Source of the DNA: an uncultured Parcubacteria group bacterium
GTDB taxonomy: Bacteria > Patescibacteriota > Minisyncoccia > UBA6257 > 2-01-FULL-56-20
DNA: 52,345 nucleotides
Assembly (NCBI GenBank): GCA_903911245.1
Contig: CAIWCR010000017.1
Coordinates: 1 to 52,345, forward strand
Direction: 5' to 3'
Under the pieces are notes generated by a model. It was not told the DNA's origin, searched no databases, and saw only the letters and a program-made list of their open reading frames with translations. A program made the position numbers and the translations under genes. Shown here one piece after another: positions 2 through 52,344 of this stretch (positions are counted from its first letter, which is position 1; every line of letters begins with the position of its first letter).

Positions 2-556
2 TATAAAGATCTCGAACAACTTCTTATGGCACCCAAAGGCGACAGCTTGCGCGCACTTCGTGACAAGGCAATCCTTGAAACATTTTTTTCGACTGGTTTG
101 CGACTTTCCGAACTATGCGCACTCCCCCGCACCATCGATCTTAGACGTGGCGAAGTTTCCATTCGCGGAAAAGGAGATAAAATCCGCGTCGTATTCATCG
201 CCGATTCAGCACGCGAAGCAATACAAACCTATCTCAAAAAACGCGGCGACACCGAAGGCGCACTTTTTATAAGTATCAGTAAATCAGGAAAAGTTATCGG
301 AAAAATAACACCACGATCCGTTCAGCGCCTCATTGCCACACGTGCTCGCGAAGCCGGCCTTCCAAAACACGTTCATGCGCACGAACTCAGGCATAGCTTC
401 GCGACCGATCTCCTCATGAACGGCGCCGATCTCCGTTCTGTGCAGGAACTTCTCGGACATTCCAATATCTCAACCACGCAAGCATATACCCACCTCACCA
501 ACAAAGCTCTCCGCGAAGTCCATAAAGCATTTCACGGCAAAAGAAGAGACGGATAA
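2..556 (+). CDS. Tyrosine recombinase, XerC/XerD family (5' truncated by window edge)
   Basis: Catalytic motifs TGLRLSEL, RGKGDK, HELRHSFAT, LLGHSNISTTQAYTH; the frame is open from base 2 (YKDLEQLLM...). Confidence 0.93.
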   Translation, partial: YKDLEQLLMAPKGDSLRALRDKAILETFFSTGLRLSELCALPRTIDLRRGEVSIRGKGDKIRVVFIADSAREAIQTYLKKRGDTEGALFISISKSGKVIGKITPRSVQRLIATRAREAGLPKHVHAHELRHSFATDLLMNGADLRSVQELLGHSNISTTQAYTHLTNKALREVHKAFHGKRRDG

Positions 557-1284: not shown

Positions 1285-1365
1285 CTGTTTCGCCCTTTGC
1301 GCTTCGCTTACCAAGAGGTAGCGAATACTTGGGCTCATCAGGCATAGACACGCACTCTGCGACAG
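1285..1365 (-). ncRNA. Hammerhead ribozyme, type III
   Basis: Minus strand: CUGUC^gcagagugcgugucuaugc-CUGAUGA-gccc...gggc-GAAA-cag. The core is complete; stems III (cug/cag), I and II all form; loop I UGCGU pairs with GCGCA in the stem II internal loop. Predicted cut between 1361 and 1360. Confidence 0.9.
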
Positions 1366-1535
1366 GGAAGTTTTTCAGAGAAAAACTTCCAAAACTCTTT
1401 TTTAACCCTGTCCGTTCGGAACCACCCGAACGGATTATATTGTCGCGAATGCGACAACGATTTTGAAACTCTGCCGTTTCCCGACTCGCCATTTGCTTAA
1501 GGTGCAAACGGTGACAAAAACCTTTATGAAATTAA

Positions 1536-1558
1536 CGCCGAGCTAACCTAGCTCGGCG
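1536..1558 (-). terminator. GC hairpin overlapping the stop codon of the 256-aa ORF (terminator or processing stem)
   Basis: cgccgagcta-acc-tagctcggcg perfect inverted repeat with only a weak U-tract (ttaattt) on the minus strand. Confidence 0.45.
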
Positions 1559-2313
1559 AATTTTGTCGGCAGTCTCCTGCCGACTACGACCGCCCTTTCA
1601 GAAGGGCGGACGTCGTAGATGAACCGCACCAGCTCTTCGCCGGTGTAGTTATCTGCAATTTTTTTTACGATGCCGCTTCCGGCATCGTATTCTAACCGGC
1701 AAATCTGCCGGTTAGTCGACACTTCTTGACCTCGTCCGCGGTCATAAAATGCCGCAGATGGAAATGCCGTCGGGTCTTCCGAAAAGACCCGAGCCCAGAA
1801 TTCGTCGGGCGTGTTCGCCCACCCGACGCTTTCAATCCAGAGTGCTTTTAACACTCCAGAATCTTGAAGTGGTGGCAACGCTTCAAGATATTTTCCTATA
1901 TCGGCACGGGGGATAATCCATCCCCGCGAGCCCATACAGGAATGATCTCTGACCGCAATTTCGTCGTCAAAGACGACGATATTGCAATCCATCCCGCCGA
2001 CGGCATGTACCGTCGGCACACCCGCGTAACGCAATGCGACACGCAAGCGTGGCCATGAAGCGGCCAGTTGATTGAAAGTCCCTCCTCGAGACTTTCGGAT
2101 AAAGCGGATGTGTTTACATCCGCCAAGAGACTCGTGGAGCCCCTCCACGATTGCAATAACTCCCACGTTGGGAGTTATTTTCGTGAAACCGTTTTCTAAC
2201 GGCTCCACTTTTGCAAGACATTCAATCCCATCAGGGATCATGTGTCTAACAAAAAATTTTTCACTCGGGTCGATCGTAATAATCGACCCTCTTTCGTTAA
2301 TCTTTCTGGCCAT
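1543..2313 (-). CDS. Hypothetical protein (256 aa)
   Basis: Long ORF; start moved to ATG 2313, which follows aaaggagg. No family recognised. Confidence 0.8.
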   Translation of the reverse strand: MARKINERGSIITIDPSEKFFVRHMIPDGIECLAKVEPLENGFTKITPNVGVIAIVEGLHESLGGCKHIRFIRKSRGGTFNQLAASWPRLRVALRYAGVPTVHAVGGMDCNIVVFDDEIAVRDHSCMGSRGWIIPRADIGKYLEALPPLQDSGVLKALWIESVGWANTPDEFWARVFSEDPTAFPSAAFYDRGRGQEVSTNRQICRLEYDAGSGIVKKIADNYTGEELVRFIYDVRPSERAVVVGRRLPTKFAELG

Positions 2314-2392
2314 AATAATATGACCTCCTTTCTTATTGCCCATTTTAGCGGGCACCCCGTCGCCTGTCTGACGATTGCGGGGTTTTGCCGGA

Positions 2393-3187
2393 CTAAGCGA
2401 GTCCGGCTTTTTTCATCGCTTCGGCAAGAGTGCCGAGCGATTCGCCACCTACGCTTGGCTGGTTTACATTGCCGAAATGAACTTCGGCAATATATCCAAC
2501 CACGCGGTTTGGGTCCGCGCCCCCGAAGAATTCGGGATTTCCCGAAACTTCTTCGAGGTGTCGACGCACCCGATCCCTACCGCAAACGAGGACGATATGC
2601 TCGTCCAATACTGCAGCAGGTAACGCCGCAACTCTCGCCATAAACTGGCGAGCACTCTCTTCATTTCCTTGAAAGGCAATGAAGAGAGCTCTTGGGACAT
2701 CGCTCTCCATTTTTGCCAGATCGAAATCCGGCGTATAGGAGATTGTCTGTCCCGGGTAGTCTCGCTCGTCTATAAATTGACGAGCGATGTTCTCCGCCCA
2801 ACCGAGCGGAACGGAGACGAGCGACCACATCTCGCCTCCAGACCCATGACTCGTCGAAGCTTTTGAAAGCTCACGAGTCTCGGGACCAAACACAACCGAA
2901 AAGCTCGGCCAGCGTTTGGCCCCACACCCGTTCCGATACTGTTGTACCAGAACGAGTTCCCGTTGTGCTGTCTCCTCGCAAGGAGCTATCACAACGCTTC
3001 CGTCCACGATGGCAACATGGACCACGTCCAAATTGCCATCAACAGACGACGAACCGAGAAGCCCGACATCATATCGGGTCATCCCCGAGTTCGGAGAAAA
3101 AGGAATCTGACCATCTTTGATCAGAATTCCCTTGTTTACGCTCCGACCACGGAGCGTGAGGGAAACGTGCGCTGTGCTCACAGCCAC
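2393..3187 (-). CDS. Hypothetical protein (264 aa)
   Basis: Long ORF with GTG start after ggagg, overlapping the end of the upstream ORF. No family recognised. Confidence 0.8.
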   Translation of the reverse strand: MAVSTAHVSLTLRGRSVNKGILIKDGQIPFSPNSGMTRYDVGLLGSSSVDGNLDVVHVAIVDGSVVIAPCEETAQRELVLVQQYRNGCGAKRWPSFSVVFGPETRELSKASTSHGSGGEMWSLVSVPLGWAENIARQFIDERDYPGQTISYTPDFDLAKMESDVPRALFIAFQGNEESARQFMARVAALPAAVLDEHIVLVCGRDRVRRHLEEVSGNPEFFGGADPNRVVGYIAEVHFGNVNQPSVGGESLGTLAEAMKKAGLA

Positions 3188-3699
3188 TCGCCTCCCCCAT
3201 TTGAAACTTTTTCAAGCGCCAGGCGAGCCTGGCGTTTTTCTGGCGTTTCCACACGCCAGGATCCATTCATCCACGCATACCACGTGGATGAATATTTTCC
3301 ATCGAGCCGGAATTCCGCTTCCGGCTCGATAATGGCGAGAACTTCCTCGCCATTTCCACAACGACCGGCATCGCCAAAAGCGAAGATGCCAGCCGCGATT
3401 TCCATGACACCAACAGCATCATGGATTTCATACCGGCGGCCTTTTGAATAGGCGCCGGTTGCGTTTATGATCGCGAGACAGCGCGTCTCGCTTTCATAAA
3501 CGCCCCTGACGAGGACGATGTCGCCCTCGTCGCTTTTTTTCGCCCGAACCTCGGGCCCATCCCCAATAATAGGGATGGTCTTTTCAGTCCTGCCCCTTCC
3601 TCTCTCTCCGAGGACAATCTCAGAGAGAGGCTCTCCGTCCTTCTCCAGTTCGACCAGAACTGGAGACTCGCCCGGAAAGCCAATTTTATATAATTTCAT
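3178..3699 (-). CDS. Hypothetical protein (173 aa) with LGERGRGR and AFGDAGRCG motifs
   Basis: ORF with purine-rich RBS (aagggggaaaa-ATG); co-oriented in the operon. Confidence 0.8.
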   Translation of the reverse strand: MKLYKIGFPGESPVLVELEKDGEPLSEIVLGERGRGRTEKTIPIIGDGPEVRAKKSDEGDIVLVRGVYESETRCLAIINATGAYSKGRRYEIHDAVGVMEIAAGIFAFGDAGRCGNGEEVLAIIEPEAEFRLDGKYSSTWYAWMNGSWRVETPEKRQARLALEKVSNGGGEWL

Positions 3700-3767
3700 T
3701 TTTCCCCCTTGCCCGTGCGGTAAAATTTTGCCATTTTTTTTGGCAACCGCATGGGCGAAAAAGATTT

Positions 3768-4718
3768 TTATCGGAGTACAAACTCCGACCGGCGGAGGTG
3801 CCTATCAATGACCTCCTCCACCGTGTTGGGCGTGAGTTTTGAACTCACGCCTTGAGGCGATCCACCGATAGTCGGCGAACCACCCCAACCGGGCTCGAGA
3901 GCAGAGAGCTCTGCGAGCGCGGCTTTTATGTTTACAAACCGCTCCTCGAAGGAGCAGATCGTAAACTTTCGGTGGGGTTCCCCACCGCCTAGCCGGAAAG
4001 CTGGGTTGAGCGCGATTACGACCGGGGCCAACGCATAGCCTACGGTCGTCGCCGCCCGGTGTGTCGATTCGACGACAGCAATTCTGCCGTCGAATCTCGC
4101 CTTAGCTTTGATCGCGCCGCTTTCCAGTGCCGCAATCATGTCGAGTCGTTCGCGCTCGACGTTGGAGCGGTATTGCTCGGGCTCTTCGCCCGTAAGCAAC
4201 CATCGCTCCATTACCGCAACGCGGTCGGCAATAGGGACTTTGAAATCCGCTACTGCCGCCGCAATCGCGGCAAGTGGCCGAGAAGATTCTGCCGAAGCAG
4301 ATTCTTCCGGCCACGGATCTTCTCTGGTTGGTAGAGGCTTAGGCCCCTGCCAACCGCCGCGCGCGAACTTGTCCGCCATTGCGACGGACAAAATCCGTTC
4401 GTGGCAAACAACGATATCCTTACCCCCAGAACGAAGGCAGAGTACCGCCATCGCGCCGACCGCATCGAGGTCGGCGCGAACTGTGACAAGAGTTGCGCCA
4501 ACCGGCGGCAACTCTGCATCCATCGCGGCTTCGATCGCCGCGATGGACACACTTCCCGCAACACCATGTTGCGGGTCGAGGTTTTCGATACACCGACTCG
4601 CGAGAGCCGGTATCGTAACCTCAATTCCGTAAACACCAACCGTGCTGGCGAATACGGCATTGTTGGCTTCGATCGCGGCCGGAATCGGCCGCGGGTCTAA
4701 CAACGCAAAATTAAACAT
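3768..4718 (-). CDS. Hypothetical protein, possibly a permuted DHH-like phosphoesterase (316 aa)
   Basis: SD aaggag; motifs NLDPQHG, RADLDAVGAMAVL and C-terminal GWGGSPTIGGS. The ORF is secure; the product is inference. Confidence 0.6.
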   Translation of the reverse strand: MFNFALLDPRPIPAAIEANNAVFASTVGVYGIEVTIPALASRCIENLDPQHGVAGSVSIAAIEAAMDAELPPVGATLVTVRADLDAVGAMAVLCLRSGGKDIVVCHERILSVAMADKFARGGWQGPKPLPTREDPWPEESASAESSRPLAAIAAAVADFKVPIADRVAVMERWLLTGEEPEQYRSNVERERLDMIAALESGAIKAKARFDGRIAVVESTHRAATTVGYALAPVVIALNPAFRLGGGEPHRKFTICSFEERFVNIKAALAELSALEPGWGGSPTIGGSPQGVSSKLTPNTVEEVIDRHLRRSEFVLR

Positions 4719-5437
4719 AAAATAATCTCCTTACCCCGACGCTCTTTTGTCGTCCGCAGGCATGCCACTTCATACAAGCAGCATTCTGGATACCACAAAT
4801 TGATATTCAAAATGCTACTCATACAAGTAACAAAAAGGAAATTAAATAAAGAACTTCAACACACCGCTCATAGCTCGGACGCTCCCGTGTAATAATCCGC
4901 GAACGTATAATCGCTACGAACAAATATATTGCTTATTAAGTTTTCAAAGAACTACTATCCCTCATCCAATCTATACTCTCTCCTCTAACTGATTGATTAC
5001 AGATTGCCTCTCCTCTATTTCAGGAGATTTTTGCCGTGAAGCGGTGGGTTAGACCGTTTCGCCGGCAACGTATCTCACGAAAAGAAACGTTGTAGCGCCA
5101 TGGATCATTATGATCAACGCGACATTGAAGACAGAGTCGTCGATTCCCTTTTGTCTTCGTTGCCGCTCTCGCTTATTTTCTGCGATGACATGCGCTGCGA
5201 CGAATAATAGATACAATGCCTCATGCGGTAACTCTCTCCTCGAGACCGATACCGACGGGCACCTATCGTTTATAAAAGAGCTGATGAGAATCACTTACCC
5301 GGATTCTCCTAGGTCTCTCTCCTCTAAGAAAGAAGTATGGAGGCGAATTTGGTTCCCCTGCATGCTTCTTTCTTTCCTTTGATCGCTCACTGTTCTTATT
5401 TGAAGTTGTGATGATCTTTTCCTTCTCTCATCCTCGC
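4719..5437 (-). ncRNA. Putative ~720-nt structured 5' leader or ncRNA with GAGGAGAG repeats
   Basis: Lies between a consensus promoter and the first convincing ORF; many hairpins; repeats at 4976-4986, 5008-5017, 5232-5241, 5315-5325. Confidence 0.55.
4941..4952 (-). promoter_or_regulatory. boxA-like antitermination sequence GTTCTTTGAAAA
   Basis: Matches the Firmicute-type rrn boxA and is oriented with the operon; a weaker gttcttta lies near 4847-4854. Confidence 0.55.
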
Positions 5438-5874: not shown

Positions 5875-6648
5875 ATGTACGAACAAACACTTACCCAAGC
5901 AGGGCTTTCAGAGGATCAGGCTCGTGTATATGAAACGCTTCTCAAGCACGGAAACTCCCCCGCGAGCAAAATAAGCACCTATACAGGACTCAAACGAGGC
6001 CTTACGTATAAGGTTCTTGATGAACTCGAAAAGGCAGGGCTGATTATAAAGCACGAAAAAGAAGGATCAGTCGCGCAATTCGAACCGGCGCATCCTTTGA
6101 AGCTCAAAGATCTTGCCGACAAAAAGACGCGCGAAGCAGCGGATGCCCACGTTGCGCTTGATGGGATCATAAGTCCGCTTATTTCTGATTTTAATCTGGT
6201 TTCGGGGAGGCCCGGCGTTCTTGTTTATGAAGGTCTTGATGGTATAAAAAAGGTTCTCAACGATACTCTCACGTCAAAAACCGAAATTTGTTCATATGGC
6301 GATATTGAAGCAATTGTAAAAAACTTCGGCGACATAAATAAAGCGTATGGAATAAAAAGAGAGAAGCTCGGCATTAAACGCAGAGGCCTCCTTCTCGACA
6401 CCTTGTTTGCACGAGAATATCTCAAAGATTATCACTCTGCAGTAACTGAAAATCGATTTATTCGCACCGAAGCAGTGCCATTTAAAAGCATTATGAATAT
6501 CTATGACGAAAAAATTGCTTACATCACACTACAGCCAGAAAAAATAATATGCGCGATCATTGCCAATAAAGATATTTACGAAATGCATCAATGCCTTTTT
6601 GAGTATCTTTGGAACATTACCGAACAAATCAAGCCACTTCACGAATAG
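5875..6648 (+). CDS. TrmB-family transcriptional regulator
   Basis: N-terminal GLSEDQARVYETLL...GLKRGLTYKVLDELEKAGLI winged HTH; C-terminal YEGLDGI and IYDEKIA effector-binding region. Confidence 0.88.
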   Translation: MYEQTLTQAGLSEDQARVYETLLKHGNSPASKISTYTGLKRGLTYKVLDELEKAGLIIKHEKEGSVAQFEPAHPLKLKDLADKKTREAADAHVALDGIISPLISDFNLVSGRPGVLVYEGLDGIKKVLNDTLTSKTEICSYGDIEAIVKNFGDINKAYGIKREKLGIKRRGLLLDTLFAREYLKDYHSAVTENRFIRTEAVPFKSIMNIYDEKIAYITLQPEKIICAIIANKDIYEMHQCLFEYLWNITEQIKPLHE

Positions 6649-9340
6649 TTTTCGATGTCTTTTTAGTCGGCTTCATCTTTTCAAAAACACAATAGGTTTG
6701 TCCATCATTTTCAAAATAACGAGTAAGTGCGTAACCCTCCTGAAGTAATGAAAAATCGGGCCGGATGCCAGCAGGACATGTCATTGCAGTTATGTTTTCG
6801 CCTAAGTCTTTTTTTAATTTTATATCCCTCACAAGCTCCTCGATATTTAATCCCTTTGAAGAAAATAGTTTTTCTGCGTCGGGAAGTATTTCTATAGAAA
6901 AACCTGATACTCCTTTAAACTCGGACTCTTTTACTGCGATAAATCCTAATTCATTAATATATTTTTTTGCAATCGGTGCCATTGGACTACAATCAGCAAT
7001 AATCGGAACACCAAACGCTTGCTGTTCAAGAAGTGCTTGCTCAACCATGGTTTCTCCTACTTTACCTTGCCAATAAGCCTGACTCGCATTAAAAGATCCT
7101 GCATAAATAGAGTCGAGCGTGCCGTCGTCGCGATATTTATAATCAAATCGACAAAATGCCGCAACCACACCCTGATGTTTCAAAAGATAAAAACGGGTGT
7201 TTTGATTTTCGAGAGAATCATCAAATATTTTTATAAGAGCATCGCTAAATTCCTGCGAAAAGCTAGTACGGTCACGATAGTTTTCGCGATAAATGTGATG
7301 CATCTCATCAATTGTTGCCTTTTGTTTCTTAAGGTCAGGTGCATCAAGTACGTCAAATTGAGCAAGAGCAAGCTCGCGCAAATCAAGAATACGAAAATCC
7401 TGATTTTGATGTAATGCCTTAAACGTACTCGTAAAAAGCATTGCCTCGGCTTTTACAGTATCGAGTTTTTCGAGAAGAGAAGAAATATCAGCATTCGCAT
7501 CAACCTTATCGGCAAACGATTTCAAAAGCTCATTGCCACGATGAAGAAGATTTTGCGCCGCTTGATTGACGAGCTTTTCATCGGGCTTTTTTTCAGATTG
7601 AAAAGTCTCATTCAAATATTCACGCACGCCATCAACGGCGCTTGCGATTTCTGCATATTTTCCGAACAGCTGCTTAGCAATGTCAGGGTCGAGTTTTTCG
7701 GCAAGTTTGATTATCGCTTGCGAATATGTTTTTTCGTCTTCAGTGCAAGCAAGAAACGCCTTCGCGACATCAATTTTGTAGTCTTTGCAATTACTAAGCG
7801 CATCCTGCATTTCTTTCACTTCATCAACCGTGCGGCCATTGATATATTTGAGAAATTGCACCTGCGAAGAAAGAGGAAGTGCTGATATCTCTATTCCAAA
7901 ATCATCTTCAATTACTTTTCGCATATTCAAGCGCATCAAGTACTCATAATTATATGTTACATCTTCCGATGCCCCGCCAGCCGGAAAAAGACGTTGCAGG
8001 TATTCTTCTCGAGTAAGAGATTTTACCTGATCTTTTTCCCCCTCAATGGACTTAATATATTCTTCGTTATTTTGAAGTATATCGTTCTTCGTAGACGATT
8101 GTAATGCTTCTAGGTCTATGCGACTCGTGTCAAAAAAGAATTTTTGTCCGGTCTCTTTTAGTTTTTGTTCAAAAAAGAAAATATCGAGCCATTGCTTTCC
8201 GGGATTATGGCTCCCCTTGCTAAGCTCAATTGATTCCCTTAGGTCATCATAAATATGATCATTAGATGAGTCATTTTGAGCTATAAACTGTTTTTCATCA
8301 ATAGATCTCTTTGTCGCATTAGATGCCTTTAAAATAAAATCGAGCTTTTCACCTTTATACTTTCCCAAATAGCCTGGAGCAATAGGAATCACCATTTCCT
8401 TTATGAGAGTTCCCTTGTTAATGCCATATTGCAAACGAAAATCATATGATTCTTGCATGTGTCGATAGGCATAAATATGCGCATCATCTACTCCTGGTCC
8501 GATGATAAGACTGCCATGCTTAGCTATGTCTTCAAGGAAGACTCCACGCTCGCCAGCGTTGTTTAAGTGTTTTTTAATAAGATAATTTTCGCATATCGGG
8601 GCAATCTTTTTTACAAATTCTTTTGAAAACCGTATTGCAAATCGATCATAAAGACGGCAAGATTCATCGCGGCCTAGATTCATATACGTAAGACCTTCTA
8701 GTGTTGCAATATCAGCACTTAAAAAATCGATTATTTTATGCATTAGTAAGTTGCCTTCTGGAGTATTAACACGCACAAGAGCTTCTATCTTATTTTTGAG
8801 TTCATCAGAAAACGAATCTTCTGTTTTTTCAAGATTTTTGGCAAGTTTTTTCGTAAGCAGGCTCACCTCTAAATATCGCCTAGATTCACTTAGGGCCGCC
8901 AGAAGAGGGAATGAAAGAGGTTTTTCTTGTAATGAGATAATTTTTTCTACGGCGACAATGCGCTTCTCTTTTTCTTCTTGTGTGTCTCCCTGATAAATAA
9001 ATGATACGAGCTTGTTTTCTTTGCTTTGCTCATTATCCCATAGTGCCTCAATAATCAACTCCATATCCGACTCTAAAATTATCTCGTCTGTTTTCTTGTT
9101 ATTAATAACGAGGTCTGCAATTTCATTTATATCAGCTTCTGAAAGCGTATTTTCAATAGACTCTTCTTTTTCTTGTTGATTCTGGATTGCCTTTTCGCGC
9201 CGAACACCCGAAAGACGCACGTTTCGTAATAGTCCTACCAATTCCTTGCGTTTCTGCTCTTCTTCAGCTGACCGATTTTCCACTAAATCAGGCCGTAGTT
9301 CAGCGTTTGAATCCGAAGGCACATTTTTCTCTTTAAACAT
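6629..9340 (-). CDS. Large hypothetical protein (~903 aa) with C-terminal GNAT-like domain
   Basis: Long ORF; RFYLLKHQGVVAAFCRF...GSFNASQAYWQGKVGETMV resembles GNAT motif A. Start placed at ATG 9340, downstream of a promoter. Confidence 0.7.
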   Translation of the reverse strand: MFKEKNVPSDSNAELRPDLVENRSAEEEQKRKELVGLLRNVRLSGVRREKAIQNQQEKEESIENTLSEADINEIADLVINNKKTDEIILESDMELIIEALWDNEQSKENKLVSFIYQGDTQEEKEKRIVAVEKIISLQEKPLSFPLLAALSESRRYLEVSLLTKKLAKNLEKTEDSFSDELKNKIEALVRVNTPEGNLLMHKIIDFLSADIATLEGLTYMNLGRDESCRLYDRFAIRFSKEFVKKIAPICENYLIKKHLNNAGERGVFLEDIAKHGSLIIGPGVDDAHIYAYRHMQESYDFRLQYGINKGTLIKEMVIPIAPGYLGKYKGEKLDFILKASNATKRSIDEKQFIAQNDSSNDHIYDDLRESIELSKGSHNPGKQWLDIFFFEQKLKETGQKFFFDTSRIDLEALQSSTKNDILQNNEEYIKSIEGEKDQVKSLTREEYLQRLFPAGGASEDVTYNYEYLMRLNMRKVIEDDFGIEISALPLSSQVQFLKYINGRTVDEVKEMQDALSNCKDYKIDVAKAFLACTEDEKTYSQAIIKLAEKLDPDIAKQLFGKYAEIASAVDGVREYLNETFQSEKKPDEKLVNQAAQNLLHRGNELLKSFADKVDANADISSLLEKLDTVKAEAMLFTSTFKALHQNQDFRILDLRELALAQFDVLDAPDLKKQKATIDEMHHIYRENYRDRTSFSQEFSDALIKIFDDSLENQNTRFYLLKHQGVVAAFCRFDYKYRDDGTLDSIYAGSFNASQAYWQGKVGETMVEQALLEQQAFGVPIIADCSPMAPIAKKYINELGFIAVKESEFKGVSGFSIEILPDAEKLFSSKGLNIEELVRDIKLKKDLGENITAMTCPAGIRPDFSLLQEGYALTRYFENDGQTYCVFEKMKPTKKTSKTIREVA

Positions 9341-9364
9341 AATAGAATATCTTGATTTAATCTT

Positions 9365-9426
9365 AGCATACCCTCCCGCCAAAGCAGAGTCAAAAACCTT
9401 GACAAATCCTTACTATATGGTAGTAT
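9365..9426. promoter_or_regulatory. Back-to-back divergent sigma70 promoters
   Basis: Plus: TTGACA(9399)-16-TAGTAT(9421) with TG. Minus: TTGACT(9393)-17-TATGCT(9370). Confidence 0.65.
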
Positions 9427-12055: not shown

Positions 12056-12457
12056 CTAGGAAGAACACGCGCCCGTACCTGATGCTCCAAACATACTTCC
12101 GATGACGCCCGGCACCGCCTTTGCAATAAGCGCCACAATAATTCCAACAACCGCATACGTTATCGTCTTTGTAGCCTTCGTCACTTTATCAGAATCATCT
12201 TGCGCCCTCATATAGGTAAAAGCAGCCCATAATACATAGAAGATAGAAACAATCATTAATATATAGAATGCCCAATCAAAGATGGGGCAAAGCACGTTTT
12301 TACCGATGTCATTAAAGGAGGTTAATGATACTCCCGACGCTGCATTCGCGCGAACCGTGGAAAACAATATGGCATTCGATAAAGCCACGGCCACCACTCC
12401 TGTTACTATCTGTATTTCTTTATTAAAACGATAAAGACAATGTATTATTGTTCTCAT
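12056..12457 (-). CDS. TrbC/VirB2-like pilin
   Basis: Signal-like N-terminus; YMRAQDDSDKVTKATKTITYAVVGII. Confidence 0.82.
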   Translation of the reverse strand: MRTIIHCLYRFNKEIQIVTGVVAVALSNAILFSTVRANAASGVSLTSFNDIGKNVLCPIFDWAFYILMIVSIFYVLWAAFTYMRAQDDSDKVTKATKTITYAVVGIIVALIAKAVPGVIGSMFGASGTGACSS

Positions 12458-12547
12458 TTTATTTTTATTTATCTTTTGACTTTTTTTGATTATACCATAA
12501 TAAGCCTCCTAGAAAAAGCGTATTCCTCTAGCAAAATCGCCCCATCA

Positions 12548-12895
12548 TCAAAACATATTACTCAAAAGGCCTGACACGCTATTCGCAAGAAGAATCACCA
12601 CAAAGCCAATGCCGGCATATAATATTGTTTTTCTTCCCGTCGAAACCTTTTCTGGGTCTCCCTCGGAAGTCATCAATAAGAATCCACCCCAAAGAACCAT
12701 GATGGCGCAAAGCGGCGCTGCAAGCATAAGAATGAAATTGATTATCTTTGGAACAACACAGCTCACATTGTCACAGCCAAGAGGGTTTGGAAGTTCAATC
12801 GATCCACCAGAGCCTGCTGCCGCGAAGGAACGAGTATATATACCAAGAACCCCGAAAACAAACAGCCACCAGGATTTTTTAATATTTTTCATCAT
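12548..12895 (-). CDS. TrbC/VirB2-like pilin
   Basis: LPNPLG...LMTSEGDPEKVSTGRKTILYAGIG; start moved to ATG 12895. Confidence 0.87.
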   Translation of the reverse strand: MMKNIKKSWWLFVFGVLGIYTRSFAAAGSGGSIELPNPLGCDNVSCVVPKIINFILMLAAPLCAIMVLWGGFLLMTSEGDPEKVSTGRKTILYAGIGFVVILLANSVSGLLSNMF

Positions 12896-12915
12896 TGTCT
12901 CTATTATATCACAAA

Positions 12916-13497
12916 TTACTGAAATGATTGATTGCAAAAACTCAGAGGAAACGACTTTCCGGAAAGTGAATTGGTCGCATCGTAATAGATACCAGAAGAT
13001 GCCTTCAGCTTGCATGCGTCGGTTGCGTTTATCTGAAGAACACTCAAAAAGTCCTGCTCTGCTGCCTCGCGCCATTTATCAAAAGGAGTTCCTATGATAA
13101 CAAGCCAAAAACTCGAATCGGTGCTCGCATATAGTATCGAATAATTTTGCGTCTGTTTTACAACAATCGATCCCCCTTCGGAAACGTTAGGGTTTGATAA
13201 ATAAAAGTTTTTGATTCCAACACTTCCTTCAGAACTGCCGATGGTGAGTATTGGATCTTTTGGAAACTTCTCCAAAACCTGCGAAGCCGAACCAATAACG
13301 TCAGATGGCGAAGCTGTTCCTGCACTATTTGTCGTGTTCTGATTTGACGTTTCTGTAATAGGAAGATTACCGCCAACCAATGACGTTTCGGTCGTATTGC
13401 TCTTTGAAGATGATTGACCCTTTAGAAGGGTAAAGAAGAGCGCTACTACGACACCAATAGCCAAGATCGCGACCGTAATGATGATTATTTTTTTCAT
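12916..13497 (-). CDS. Membrane-anchored hypothetical protein in the pilin cluster
   Basis: N-terminal TM segment, S/T-rich linker, C-terminal domain with two Cys. Confidence 0.8.
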   Translation of the reverse strand: MKKIIIITVAILAIGVVVALFFTLLKGQSSSKSNTTETSLVGGNLPITETSNQNTTNSAGTASPSDVIGSASQVLEKFPKDPILTIGSSEGSVGIKNFYLSNPNVSEGGSIVVKQTQNYSILYASTDSSFWLVIIGTPFDKWREAAEQDFLSVLQINATDACKLKASSGIYYDATNSLSGKSFPLSFCNQSFQ

Positions 13498-13518: not shown

Positions 13519-14373
13519 TTAATAGCGAGACCAAATATGCAAATGTCCACCAGTTCCATATTTAGTTTGCGCTCCGTTGCAACCTGTATATTCATTAAAT
13601 GAGGTAGCGCCACATTCACTAACAGCAGACTGAAGCGCAGCAACCTGACCACACGTTGCATCCGCGTTTATCGCAGCATCGACACAGCTTCCATTATTAT
13701 GACATTTATCCTGATGAGAACTACTTGGAGGCATTGCCTCGGTTATTATAATGGGAATTTTAGCATTATTCATGACGCCCTGAACGCATTGAAGTGTTGA
13801 TGCCATGCCCTGGGTGGCCTGACAACCGTTTTTACACTCTACCCCAGCAAGAGAAACACAATCTTTCCCCTCCTCACATGTTGCAAGTGGTCCCATAGGA
13901 GTGCCGCCAGTGTCCCATCCGAGCAAAGAAAGAAGAGAAACAATCGGAGAGGTGACGGCCGCAGGATTGGTGGCTGCTTGATTAATTGGTAATGGCGAGA
14001 GCGTCGGCAGTTGGCACTTTGCAAGATCAGGATTAATAGTATTCAAAACAAGATGAGCGCTTGCCAGGAGAACGAGCCCCAAAAGCGCGCCCATAATCCA
14101 ATCTTTTCCATCTGATTGTGCAGAAGGATTCCCTGCAGCAATTGCATATTTCACGCCACCCCAAACAATTGCACCGAACGCAAGAATGCCGCTTATCAAA
14201 AGCGCAAACCAATAAAAGTTAATAACCATGACGCAAGGATTATTCGCCGAGGCGGCTTGGGCCCCAGGAATATCAACGCTGATCACCGTATTCGCGAAAA
14301 CAAGAAAAGGAGTCGCCACACCGACGAGAACACAAAGAAAAGAAATGATTTTTGTCTTGGAAAAAAGATTCAT
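13519..14373 (-). CDS. Pilin fused to a putative M15/Hedgehog-type zinc peptidase domain
   Basis: Pilin motif YAIAAGNPSAQSDGKDWI...LNTINPDL; C-terminal CHNNGSCVD (H-x6-D) and GGHLHI (HxH). Confidence 0.75.
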   Translation of the reverse strand: MNLFSKTKIISFLCVLVGVATPFLVFANTVISVDIPGAQAASANNPCVMVINFYWFALLISGILAFGAIVWGGVKYAIAAGNPSAQSDGKDWIMGALLGLVLLASAHLVLNTINPDLAKCQLPTLSPLPINQAATNPAAVTSPIVSLLSLLGWDTGGTPMGPLATCEEGKDCVSLAGVECKNGCQATQGMASTLQCVQGVMNNAKIPIIITEAMPPSSSHQDKCHNNGSCVDAAINADATCGQVAALQSAVSECGATSFNEYTGCNGAQTKYGTGGHLHIWSRY

Positions 14374-51516: not shown

Positions 51517-52344
51517 TTATCTTGCATACTCCACAGCCCGCACCTCGCGAATGACGTTTACTTTTATGTCGCCGGGGTATTTCAATTCCGACTGAATTTT
51601 ATCGGCGACCTCTCGTGCAAGCTCAAGTGCTCGAAAATCATCGATCTTTTCAGGAGTGACAAAAATACGCAACTCGCGACCAGCTGAAATAGCATAGGCA
51701 CTCTTCACTCCCGGGAATCCCATAGCAATCTTTTCGAGATCGCCAAGACGCTTTATATAGTTTTCAATCGTGCCACGGCGAGCGCCAGGACGTGCCGCAG
51801 AAAGAACATCAGCGGCAGTAACAATATATGCTTCGGGGCGTGAATACGGATAGTCCTCATGATGCGACTGCATTGCTTCAACAACCGCCTCATTCACGTT
51901 ATATTTTTTGAGAATCTTTATTCCAAGCTCGACATGCGTTCCCTCAACCTCATGATCGATTGATTTTCCAATGTCATGTAAAAGCCCGCCGCGTTTCGCA
52001 ACGTCAGCATTCAATCCAAGCTCCCGCGCCATCATCTCGCTCAAATATGCCACCTCTATAGAGTGCATAAGGACGTTCTGCCCGAAGCTCGTTCTGAAAT
52101 TCAAGCGACCGATGAGCTGTAAAAGTTCTTTGGGAATGTCATAAATACCAAGATCTTGTGCGGCTGAGTCGCCAATCTCCTGCATGCGCTTCGTAAGCTC
52201 CCCCTTTGCTTCTTCAACCTTCTCTTCTATTTTGGCAGGCTGTATTCGTCCGTCTTTCATGAGTTTTTCGAGCGCAAGCCTGGCGACTTCGCGACGATAC
52301 GGATCAAATGACGAAATAATAACGCCATCCGGAGCTTCATCAAT
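51517..52344 (-). CDS. rny: Ribonuclease Y (5' truncated by window edge)
   Basis: SSFDPYRRE, RTSFGQNVL, LLHDIGK, ADVLSAARPGAR, AGRELR. Confidence 0.96.
   Translation of the reverse strand: MDEAPDGVIISSFDPYRREVARLALEKLMKDGRIQPAKIEEKVEEAKGELTKRMQEIGDSAAQDLGIYDIPKELLQLIGRLNFRTSFGQNVLMHSIEVAYLSEMMARELGLNADVAKRGGLLHDIGKSIDHEVEGTHVELGIKILKKYNVNEAVVEAMQSHHEDYPYSRPEAYIVTAADVLSAARPGARRGTIENYIKRLGDLEKIAMGFPGVKSAYAISAGRELRIFVTPEKIDDFRALELAREVADKIQSELKYPGDIKVNVIREVRAVEYAR

Follow-up and report, generated by a model that had tools for sequence, protein, structure and literature searches.

The stretch of DNA analysed here (the window, 52,345 nt from an uncultured bacterium of the Parcubacteria group) encodes on its minus strand, at positions 1365–1285, a type III hammerhead ribozyme of a lineage that recurs in the order and class of its host. 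With an insert in loop II that sets it apart from most of these relatives, it probably serves as a self-cleaving intercistronic element that processes the transcript or insulates its parts from each other. That the site is a genuine hammerhead, as a first-pass annotation had proposed in calling it a complete type III ribozyme, is well supported by covarying relatives, an independent covariance model built from them (R2), a homologue in another family of the order (in genome G440) and a natural allele. The ribozyme is thereby a real, fairly ordinary new example of a well-known class, and the newer lead is a possible class-wide cassette of which it would form part. Two minus-strand ORFs, 300 nt apart, enclose it, and the intergenic stretch and its borders hold the following features.

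2355 or 2313 to 1543, minus strand: ORF of 270 or 256 aa, upstream of the ribozyme
1560–1391, minus strand: structured region with hairpins at 1558–1536, about 1514–1486, 1458–1439 and 1434–1411
1390–1366, minus strand: AU-rich hairpin GGAAGUUUUU-CUCUG-AAAAACUUCC, perfect over 10–11 bp, folding at −11.5 kcal/mol
1365–1285, minus strand: type III hammerhead ribozyme (sequence reading, RF00008 and R2 models, sole descriptor match of the genome)
1363–1361, minus strand: GUC cleavage triplet (sequence reading)
1360–1342, minus strand: stem I with loop I UGCGUGU at 1354–1348 (sequence reading, natural allele, relatives)
1341–1335, minus strand: core CUGAUGA, C3–A9 (sequence; unvarying across 13 aligned relatives)
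1334–1292, minus strand: stem II, GCCC at 1334–1331 with GGGC at 1295–1292 (minimum-energy and centroid folds)
1330–1296, minus strand: stem II insert of 35 nt, made up of the internal loop AAGUA/GCGCAAA and a hairpin at 1325–1303
1291–1285, minus strand: GAA (G12–A14) and the 3' strand of stem III, ACAG at 1288–1285, with GAAA spanning 1291–1288 (sequence)
1281–1264, minus strand: small hairpin AACGUU-GCCGGU-AACGUU, 3' of the ribozyme and 5' of the ribosome-binding site (fold)
1251–1008, minus strand: GGAGG at 1251–1247, AUG at 1238 and a hydrophobic ORF of 76 aa ending at 1008

Read on the RNA strand from 1367 to 1285, the first half of the ribozyme is CCCUGUC/GCAGAG-UGCGUGU-CUAUGC-CUGAUGA-GCCC-AAGUA-UUCGCUACC-UCUU, and after the UCUU loop it continues as GGUAAGCGAA-GCGCAAA-GGGC-GAAA-CAG, ending at 1285. 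The GUC triplet, stem I, CUGAUGA, stem II with its insert and GAAA, all named by the first-pass annotation, could each be read on the minus strand at the positions listed above. Its stem III of three pairs (CUG/CAG) is likewise present but counts 4 bp, CUGU (1365–1362) with ACAG (1288–1285), because U1362 pairs with A1288 (U16.1-A15.1). Stem I pairs GCAGAG (1360–1355) with CUAUGC (1347–1342) in five pairs plus G1357·A1345, its sole mismatch, and the hairpin within the stem II insert has 9 bp, one bulged A and a UCUU loop. All core positions are intact, namely CUGAUGA, the GAA at 1291–1289, A1288-U1362 (A15.1-U16.1), C1361 (C17) and the G10.1-C11.1 pair. The topology is that of type III, with stems I and II closed and stem III open; RF00008 positions 1–54 are matched full-length, and the covariance-model match covers 1282–1368. 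Cleavage is predicted between C1361 and G1360, and the 122 nt from there to the AUG at 1238 agree with the distance to the 76-aa ORF given earlier.

Taken as a single sequence, the site scores 27.1 bits with RF00008 (E 8e-4 in a 351-nt search, 4.8e-4 in the genome). The Rfam search that had been proposed as a check therefore matches it under the gathering threshold of 48.5 bits, largely because of the stem II insertion, and a gathering-level Rfam scan of the window returned two tRNAs only, the hammerhead site being absent. A descriptor (CUGAUGA, UH, GAA and stems of at least 3/4/4 bp) matches once in the 864,685-base genome, at 1365–1285, and no second hammerhead was found in the genome by RF00008, the descriptor or a type II model search. 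The same descriptor matched in 4 of 60 first-order Markov genomes of equal size. A loose descriptor with such hits, a sub-threshold Rfam score and surroundings rich in hairpins are what would be expected if the site were a chance match to the hammerhead consensus within a hairpin-rich intergenic region. Since the single-sequence evidence is borderline, its identity was settled by comparison.

Among the other genomes of the order, 8 of 150 had RF00008 matches (E ≤ 0.01; two over the cut-off; controls 1 of 14), and for the class the figure at E ≤ 0.001 was 5 of 150 further genomes (controls 0 of 14). Thirteen sequences from these sites went into the covariation alignment and into R2. L033 was left out of both because MAFFT misaligned its 3' end, and the partial matches L040, L041 and L049 and the long-insert L047 were left out likewise. 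In the alignment 93.7% of the cells are paired (slid controls, 32–43%), 16 of 17 pairs have changed on both sides, and the covariation score was reached by none of 500 shuffles. The relatives are built alike. Stem I has 6 bp and is 100% paired in all 13, with both-side changes at each of its six pairs; stem II has 4 bp and reads GUCC-GAAA/AAAA-GGAC, which makes loop II of tetraloop size; stem III is short, and loop I is UG-rich and 5–7 nt long (often UGUGUA). Around stem III, CUGUC...GAAACAG is common to the window, L031, L032, L035, L036 and L044, and a long insert in stem II is found again in the class relative L047, a hammerhead of 103 nt.

R2, from which the window was excluded and whose calibration is rough, gives the site 32.4 bits although it has to accommodate an insertion of 33 nt (E 9.6e-8 for the window, 1.6e-6 for the genome), and its second-best match in the genome reaches 13.2 bits. 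A chance match is made very unlikely by this genome-wide E-value and the gap to the runner-up, by the homologous hairpin-plus-hammerhead module in G440, by the existence of a pair-restoring allele, and by stem lengths and a loop I type as in the 13 covarying relatives.

Three further observations concern single relatives. The hammerhead-like site L046 (G322 contig C43, 1662–1716), which lies at a contig end, has a swapped A16.1/U15.1 pair and an AAC triplet and so departs from the U16.1 rule. On one contig (G381 contig C1), L049 (106821–106863) and L047 (108282–108384) are type III hammerheads on the same strand, 1.4 kb apart, each with a hairpin on its 5' side. The stem II insert of L047 contains a duplicated GUAAGUGC segment that permits alternative pairings.

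A homologue came from a blastn search of 1240–1540 against 400 genomes of the order, in which G440, from another family of that order, matches 1401–1329 with 77% identity over 73 nt, a span that takes in the hairpin together with the hammerhead's 5' half; the same segment searched against 40 relatives gave short weak matches only. At the G440 site (L051), an AU-rich hairpin, GGGAAGUU...AAACUUCCC, stands directly 5' of the hammerhead, as it does in the window. The G440 hammerhead has stem I UCCAGA/UCUGGG, loop I UGUGUG, the canonical stem II GUCC-AAAA-GGAC and a stem III of 4 bp; its Rfam score is only 21 bits and in a different register. Because the two share this hairpin-hammerhead module, the window ribozyme looks like a G440-like module into whose loop II some 35 nt were inserted. 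The gene 5' of the G440 module (L051, 1577–1948, minus strand) encodes a Csx3-like protein (PF09620, 27.5 bits, cut-off 21).

The locus was found in five runs, none of them listed as RNA, and natural alleles of it occur in DNA contigs of lake or freshwater metagenomes from two studies, at a low depth of about 2. The contig of run X5 carries 1240–1390 with one change, T1345G on the plus strand (A1345C in the RNA), which converts the G1357·A1345 mismatch of stem I into a G-C pair, so that all six positions of stem I are paired; its sequence is kept up to 1535 and unlike beyond. The haplotype of run X1, 89% identical, also has A1345C, which thus occurs in two studies. The changes listed for this haplotype number two in 1336–1400 (A1345C and one at 1376 in the hairpin loop) and eight in 1401–1475, one of which preserves a pair as U-G. 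A variant of the 76-aa ORF was found with unlike sequence upstream of 1264.

The insert bears directly on the tertiary contact between stems I and II. UGCGU of loop I (1354–1350) can pair with GCGCA (1302–1298) through four Watson-Crick pairs and one G-U, so the 5-bp contact proposed by the first-pass annotation is feasible; it is not established, since random loops of equal sizes offer five contiguous pairs about 5% of the time (P ~0.05). The partner, moreover, is the 3' strand of the stem II internal loop and not a terminal loop. Stem I of the window ribozyme exceeds stem II by 2 bp, and type III hammerheads with this difference are often pseudoknotted according to the legend of Fig. S4 of PMC3088659 (companion of PMC3328659). 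A pseudoknot between loop I and stem II is in our view plausible. As the small loop II of the relatives is lost to the insert, the window ribozyme cannot make the loop-loop contact in the way they do, and judging from the sequence the insertion appears to have replaced the ancestral contact by the candidate pseudoknot.

A less favourable consequence of the insertion would be a hammerhead descendant that is now crippled, its stem I–II contact broken, cleaving slowly or not at all and persisting as a structured spacer only. It would fit with this that loop II is of tetraloop size in the relatives and not in the window, that stem I of the window has a G·A mismatch and stem III only 4 bp, and that folding the RNA by itself yields, at minimum energy, stem II with its extension and neither stem I nor stem III. 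The ribozyme is also the sole hammerhead of its genome, and extended relatives number zero in the 124 other family genomes searched with R1, a single-sequence model of the window's extended form, which gave no true relative and one weak match without the core. Yet the core nucleotides are all intact, the stem I pair is restored in the second allele, and the diverged haplotype preserves the hairpin, along with the ribozyme's 5' half, far better than the sequence just 5' of them. A 5-bp substitute contact is possible, with a stem-length difference as reported for pseudoknots in the legend mentioned above, and L047 shows that a long stem II insert occurs in another member of the class. We therefore regard loss of function as improbable and keep to the reading of a self-cleaving element whose contact was rearranged.

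In engineered and natural ribozymes, the position of the stem II insert is one at which activity is modulated. Its hairpin is stable and stands apart, next to an asymmetric internal loop, and could accordingly suggest a regulated (allosteric) hammerhead, with cleavage switched by a protein or small molecule bound to the insert or by competition of the insert with the pseudoknot. This is quite unlikely, as no Rfam riboswitch or other family was matched at E ≤ 10 except RF00008 and, weakly, RF02998, and the R1 search of the 124 family genomes found no relatives of the insert. A pattern for the window's stem II had 0 matches in viral contigs.

What most consistently accompanies the ribozyme is structure on its 5' side. 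The hairpin at 1390–1366 abuts stem III with no spacer; its stability, at the 47th percentile for its GC-rich surroundings, is not unusual. It is the last of five successive hairpins over 1560–1366, 5' of the ribozyme, and the fold of 1560–1361 reaches −76.8 kcal/mol (z = −6.5), with none of 200 shuffles equally stable. The first of the five, at 1558–1536, is terminator-like with a weak U tail and overlaps the stop codon of the 256-aa ORF. In the order-level relatives, the 45-nt fold on the 5' side is in the lowest 1.2% of locus windows at 6 of 11 sites, and the downstream flanks are unremarkable in folding; in the class-level relatives, upstream folds of −14 to −24 kcal/mol were found at three of five assessable sites. 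A stable hairpin directly 5' of stem III, and not any particular downstream gene, is thus the recurring companion of these hammerheads.

Two similarities to parts of this upstream region were seen elsewhere. The 53 nt at 1521–1469, which include the hairpin at about 1514–1486, have a counterpart of 78% identity in G150, located 5' of a classical terminator, and at L050 (G558 contig C5, ~14041–14072) a hairpin with 91% identity over 31 nt to that at 1390–1366 occurs without a hammerhead after it. No sigma-70-like promoter was found in a scan of the minus strand at 1540–1370, and the TATAAT at 1439–1434 was rejected as a promoter, having no usable −35 and being altered at two positions in the variant haplotype.

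The upstream region also gave a match to RF02998 at 1493–1362 (27.4 bits, E 0.01 in the 351-nt search) that ends exactly at CUGU, as if an IS605-type guide RNA (omega RNA, IS605-orfB-II) had its 3' part here. The score is to be read against a cut-off of 88 bits, and the alignment contains many deletions. A genome-wide RF02998 search missed the site, gave another place (20.9 bits) and matched 5 of 14 controls. The TnpB zinc-ribbon domain PF07282, present in 8 of 14 controls, was not found in the genome, and the neighbouring ORFs have no Pfam family. With a sub-threshold score, no genome-wide recovery and no TnpB, an omega-RNA identity was rejected, and what chance it retains is negligible.

The genome that carries the ribozyme is small (0.86 Mb) and 98.8% complete. 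Four ORFs upstream of the ribozyme on the minus strand (1543–4718) form a gene cluster, and the block at 1500–5000 has a GC content of 51–57%, against 42% for the genome; beside it, at the contig end, lies a truncated tyrosine recombinase gene (2–556, plus strand). The block is probably acquired DNA. The five flanking ORFs gave nothing meaningful in Pfam, PHROGs, NCBIfam and PADLOC. The 256-aa protein has 12 homologues, its own cluster included, and ESM Atlas was uninformative on its ORF; a homologue of a neighbouring protein was assigned to a Candidatus Moraniibacteriota MAG. At the eight loci with homologues of the 256-aa protein (L023–L030), no other gene of the window's cluster is shared, no hammerhead core with stem II was found (L023 was also scanned with Rfam), and no RNA similar to that of the window lies downstream of the homologue. 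For the 316-aa ORF, a DHH/DHHA1-like predicted fold and phage-associated neighbours appear in ESM Atlas only, as a lead, and no relative of it was found in viral contigs or, by tblastn, in GenBank phages. The 76-aa ORF has no relatives but itself, its matches to hydrophobic families being sub-threshold only, and a strong GGAGG stands 8 nt 5' of its AUG. Elsewhere in the window, two adjacent ORFs at 12056–13075 (minus strand) have type IV secretion pilin domains (PF18895), and an ORF of 917 aa (6629–9382, minus strand) has no Pfam family.

In the reading that we favour, read-through from the upstream four-gene cluster would yield an RNA that carries the ribozyme, and this RNA would fold while it is transcribed and cut itself between C1361 and G1360. 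The upstream product would then close with the hairpin at 1390–1366 followed by CUGUC with a 2',3'-cyclic phosphate end, and the downstream product would begin with a 5'-OH G paired in stem I and continue through the ribozyme body, the small hairpin and GGAGG to the 76-aa ORF. Since the cut would part the upstream and downstream RNAs, these could meet separate fates, hence the proposed role as an intercistronic processing or insulating element. The earlier suggestion that the 5'-OH RNA would be uncoupled from the upstream genes is a reasonable hypothesis, to be qualified by what recurs beside the relatives' ribozymes, the hairpin and not a given downstream gene.

RNase J and RNase Y are present in the genome, and searches of it returned no RNase E/G, no RtcB and no Rho over its cut-off. 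The gene for RNase Y itself lies partly in the window, its C-terminal half at 51520–52344 (minus strand) running off the contig end and its N-terminal half matching contig C28. A circular RNA formed with a second ribozyme was considered and rejected, as neither a second copy nor RtcB was found in the genome.

In Bacillus subtilis, the 5'-OH RNA product of the glmS ribozyme is degraded by RNase J (PMC3328962), and that system resembles the arrangement proposed for the window, with a self-cleaving RNA 5' of an ORF, an RNase J host and a 5'-OH end that decides what becomes of the cleaved RNA. In contrast, glmS is ligand-dependent and has an unrelated fold, and in the window the 5' nucleotide left by cleavage would be base-paired in stem I, which may shield it from decay by RNase J. 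For the downstream RNA, cleavage may therefore act in either direction, stabilising or destabilising.

The surroundings of the relatives help to narrow the role. According to mechanically called ORFs, the stop of a clear same-strand upstream ORF lies 43–56 nt 5' of the ribozyme at L031, L034, L036, L037 and L051. Small membrane-like ORFs follow about 25–170 nt downstream at L031, L036 and L041, and ORFs on the opposite strand are found downstream at L032, L033 and L037. With a recurring hairpin and varying downstream contexts, the relatives favour a role that turns on the cleavage as such and on the 3' end left upstream, rather than on any one gene downstream.

Taken further, this would suggest a class-wide hairpin-hammerhead cassette that makes RNA 3' ends independently of protein: in genomes like this one, with RNase J and RNase Y but no RNase E/G, RtcB or above-cut-off Rho found, the ribozyme would cut read-through RNA a few nucleotides beyond a protective hairpin, RNase J would take the 5'-OH RNA in a torpedo-like manner, transcription units would thereby be insulated or terminated, and the copy in the window would be one whose contact was rewired after the insertion. 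We put this forward as a speculative lead that is more likely wrong than right by a good distance. Type III hammerheads do recur in these ultra-small bacteria, usually right after a stable hairpin, and should the cassette generally serve to form 3' ends or to insulate, the persistence of such ribozymes in reduced genomes would be explained. The window copy offers a clean case: it is the sole hammerhead of a 0.86-Mb genome, it borders a GC-rich cluster of probably acquired genes, and its stem I comes in a natural allele series.

Synthetic insulators of the RiboJ type place a hammerhead before the ribosome-binding site, and its cut trims away the RNA 5' of it, so that the new 5' end is defined and structured. 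The window arrangement differs in being natural, with an accessory hairpin 5' of the ribozyme and a second small hairpin 3' of it. Compared with RF00008 hammerheads (clan CL00010), it has the identical core, the three-way junction, an open stem III, GUC and G10.1-C11.1, and departs from the norm in its 35-nt loop II insert with an internal loop and in its sub-gathering score; it is DNA-encoded in a bacterium, unlike the hammerheads of viroids, satellites or eukaryotic retroelements. To our knowledge, little has been established so far about what DNA-encoded hammerheads do in bacteria.

Bacterial and prophage hammerheads between genes, with pseudoknot contacts and variable stems, have already been described (Perreault et al. 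2011, PMC3088659). On the portions of that paper drawn on here, the window ribozyme is like them in its intergenic position, its proposed pseudoknot, its stem I 2 bp longer than stem II, and its place in a GC-rich, probably acquired cluster beside an integrase. It is unlike them in that their ribozymes come in clusters flanking genes and the window's is single-copy in its genome, and in that its candidate pseudoknot partner belongs to the stem II internal loop. Those portions make no mention of a hairpin adjoining stem III on its 5' side, such as recurs in our set. A 2026 paper (PMC13725137) describes type III as typical of circular RNA agents and DNA-encoded bacterial hammerheads as usually type I. 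A full-text literature search for hammerheads together with Candidate Phyla Radiation or Patescibacteria returned nothing on topic, judged by titles and the starts of abstracts.

A short element was also seen downstream of the relatives' hammerheads, where the motif found is UUCUUUGA-like. UUCUUU[G/A/U], a motif defined post hoc and often present as GUUCUUUGA, occurs within 35 nt after 7 of 19 hammerheads (L036, L037, L044, L045, L048, L049 and L039, with no rRNA genes there), against 2.9% of background windows. It resembles the boxA antitermination element of Gram-positive rRNA operons. The motif is absent after the window ribozyme, and AGUUCUUUGAAAACU stands at 4952–4944 on the minus strand, about 230 nt 5' of the 316-aa ORF.
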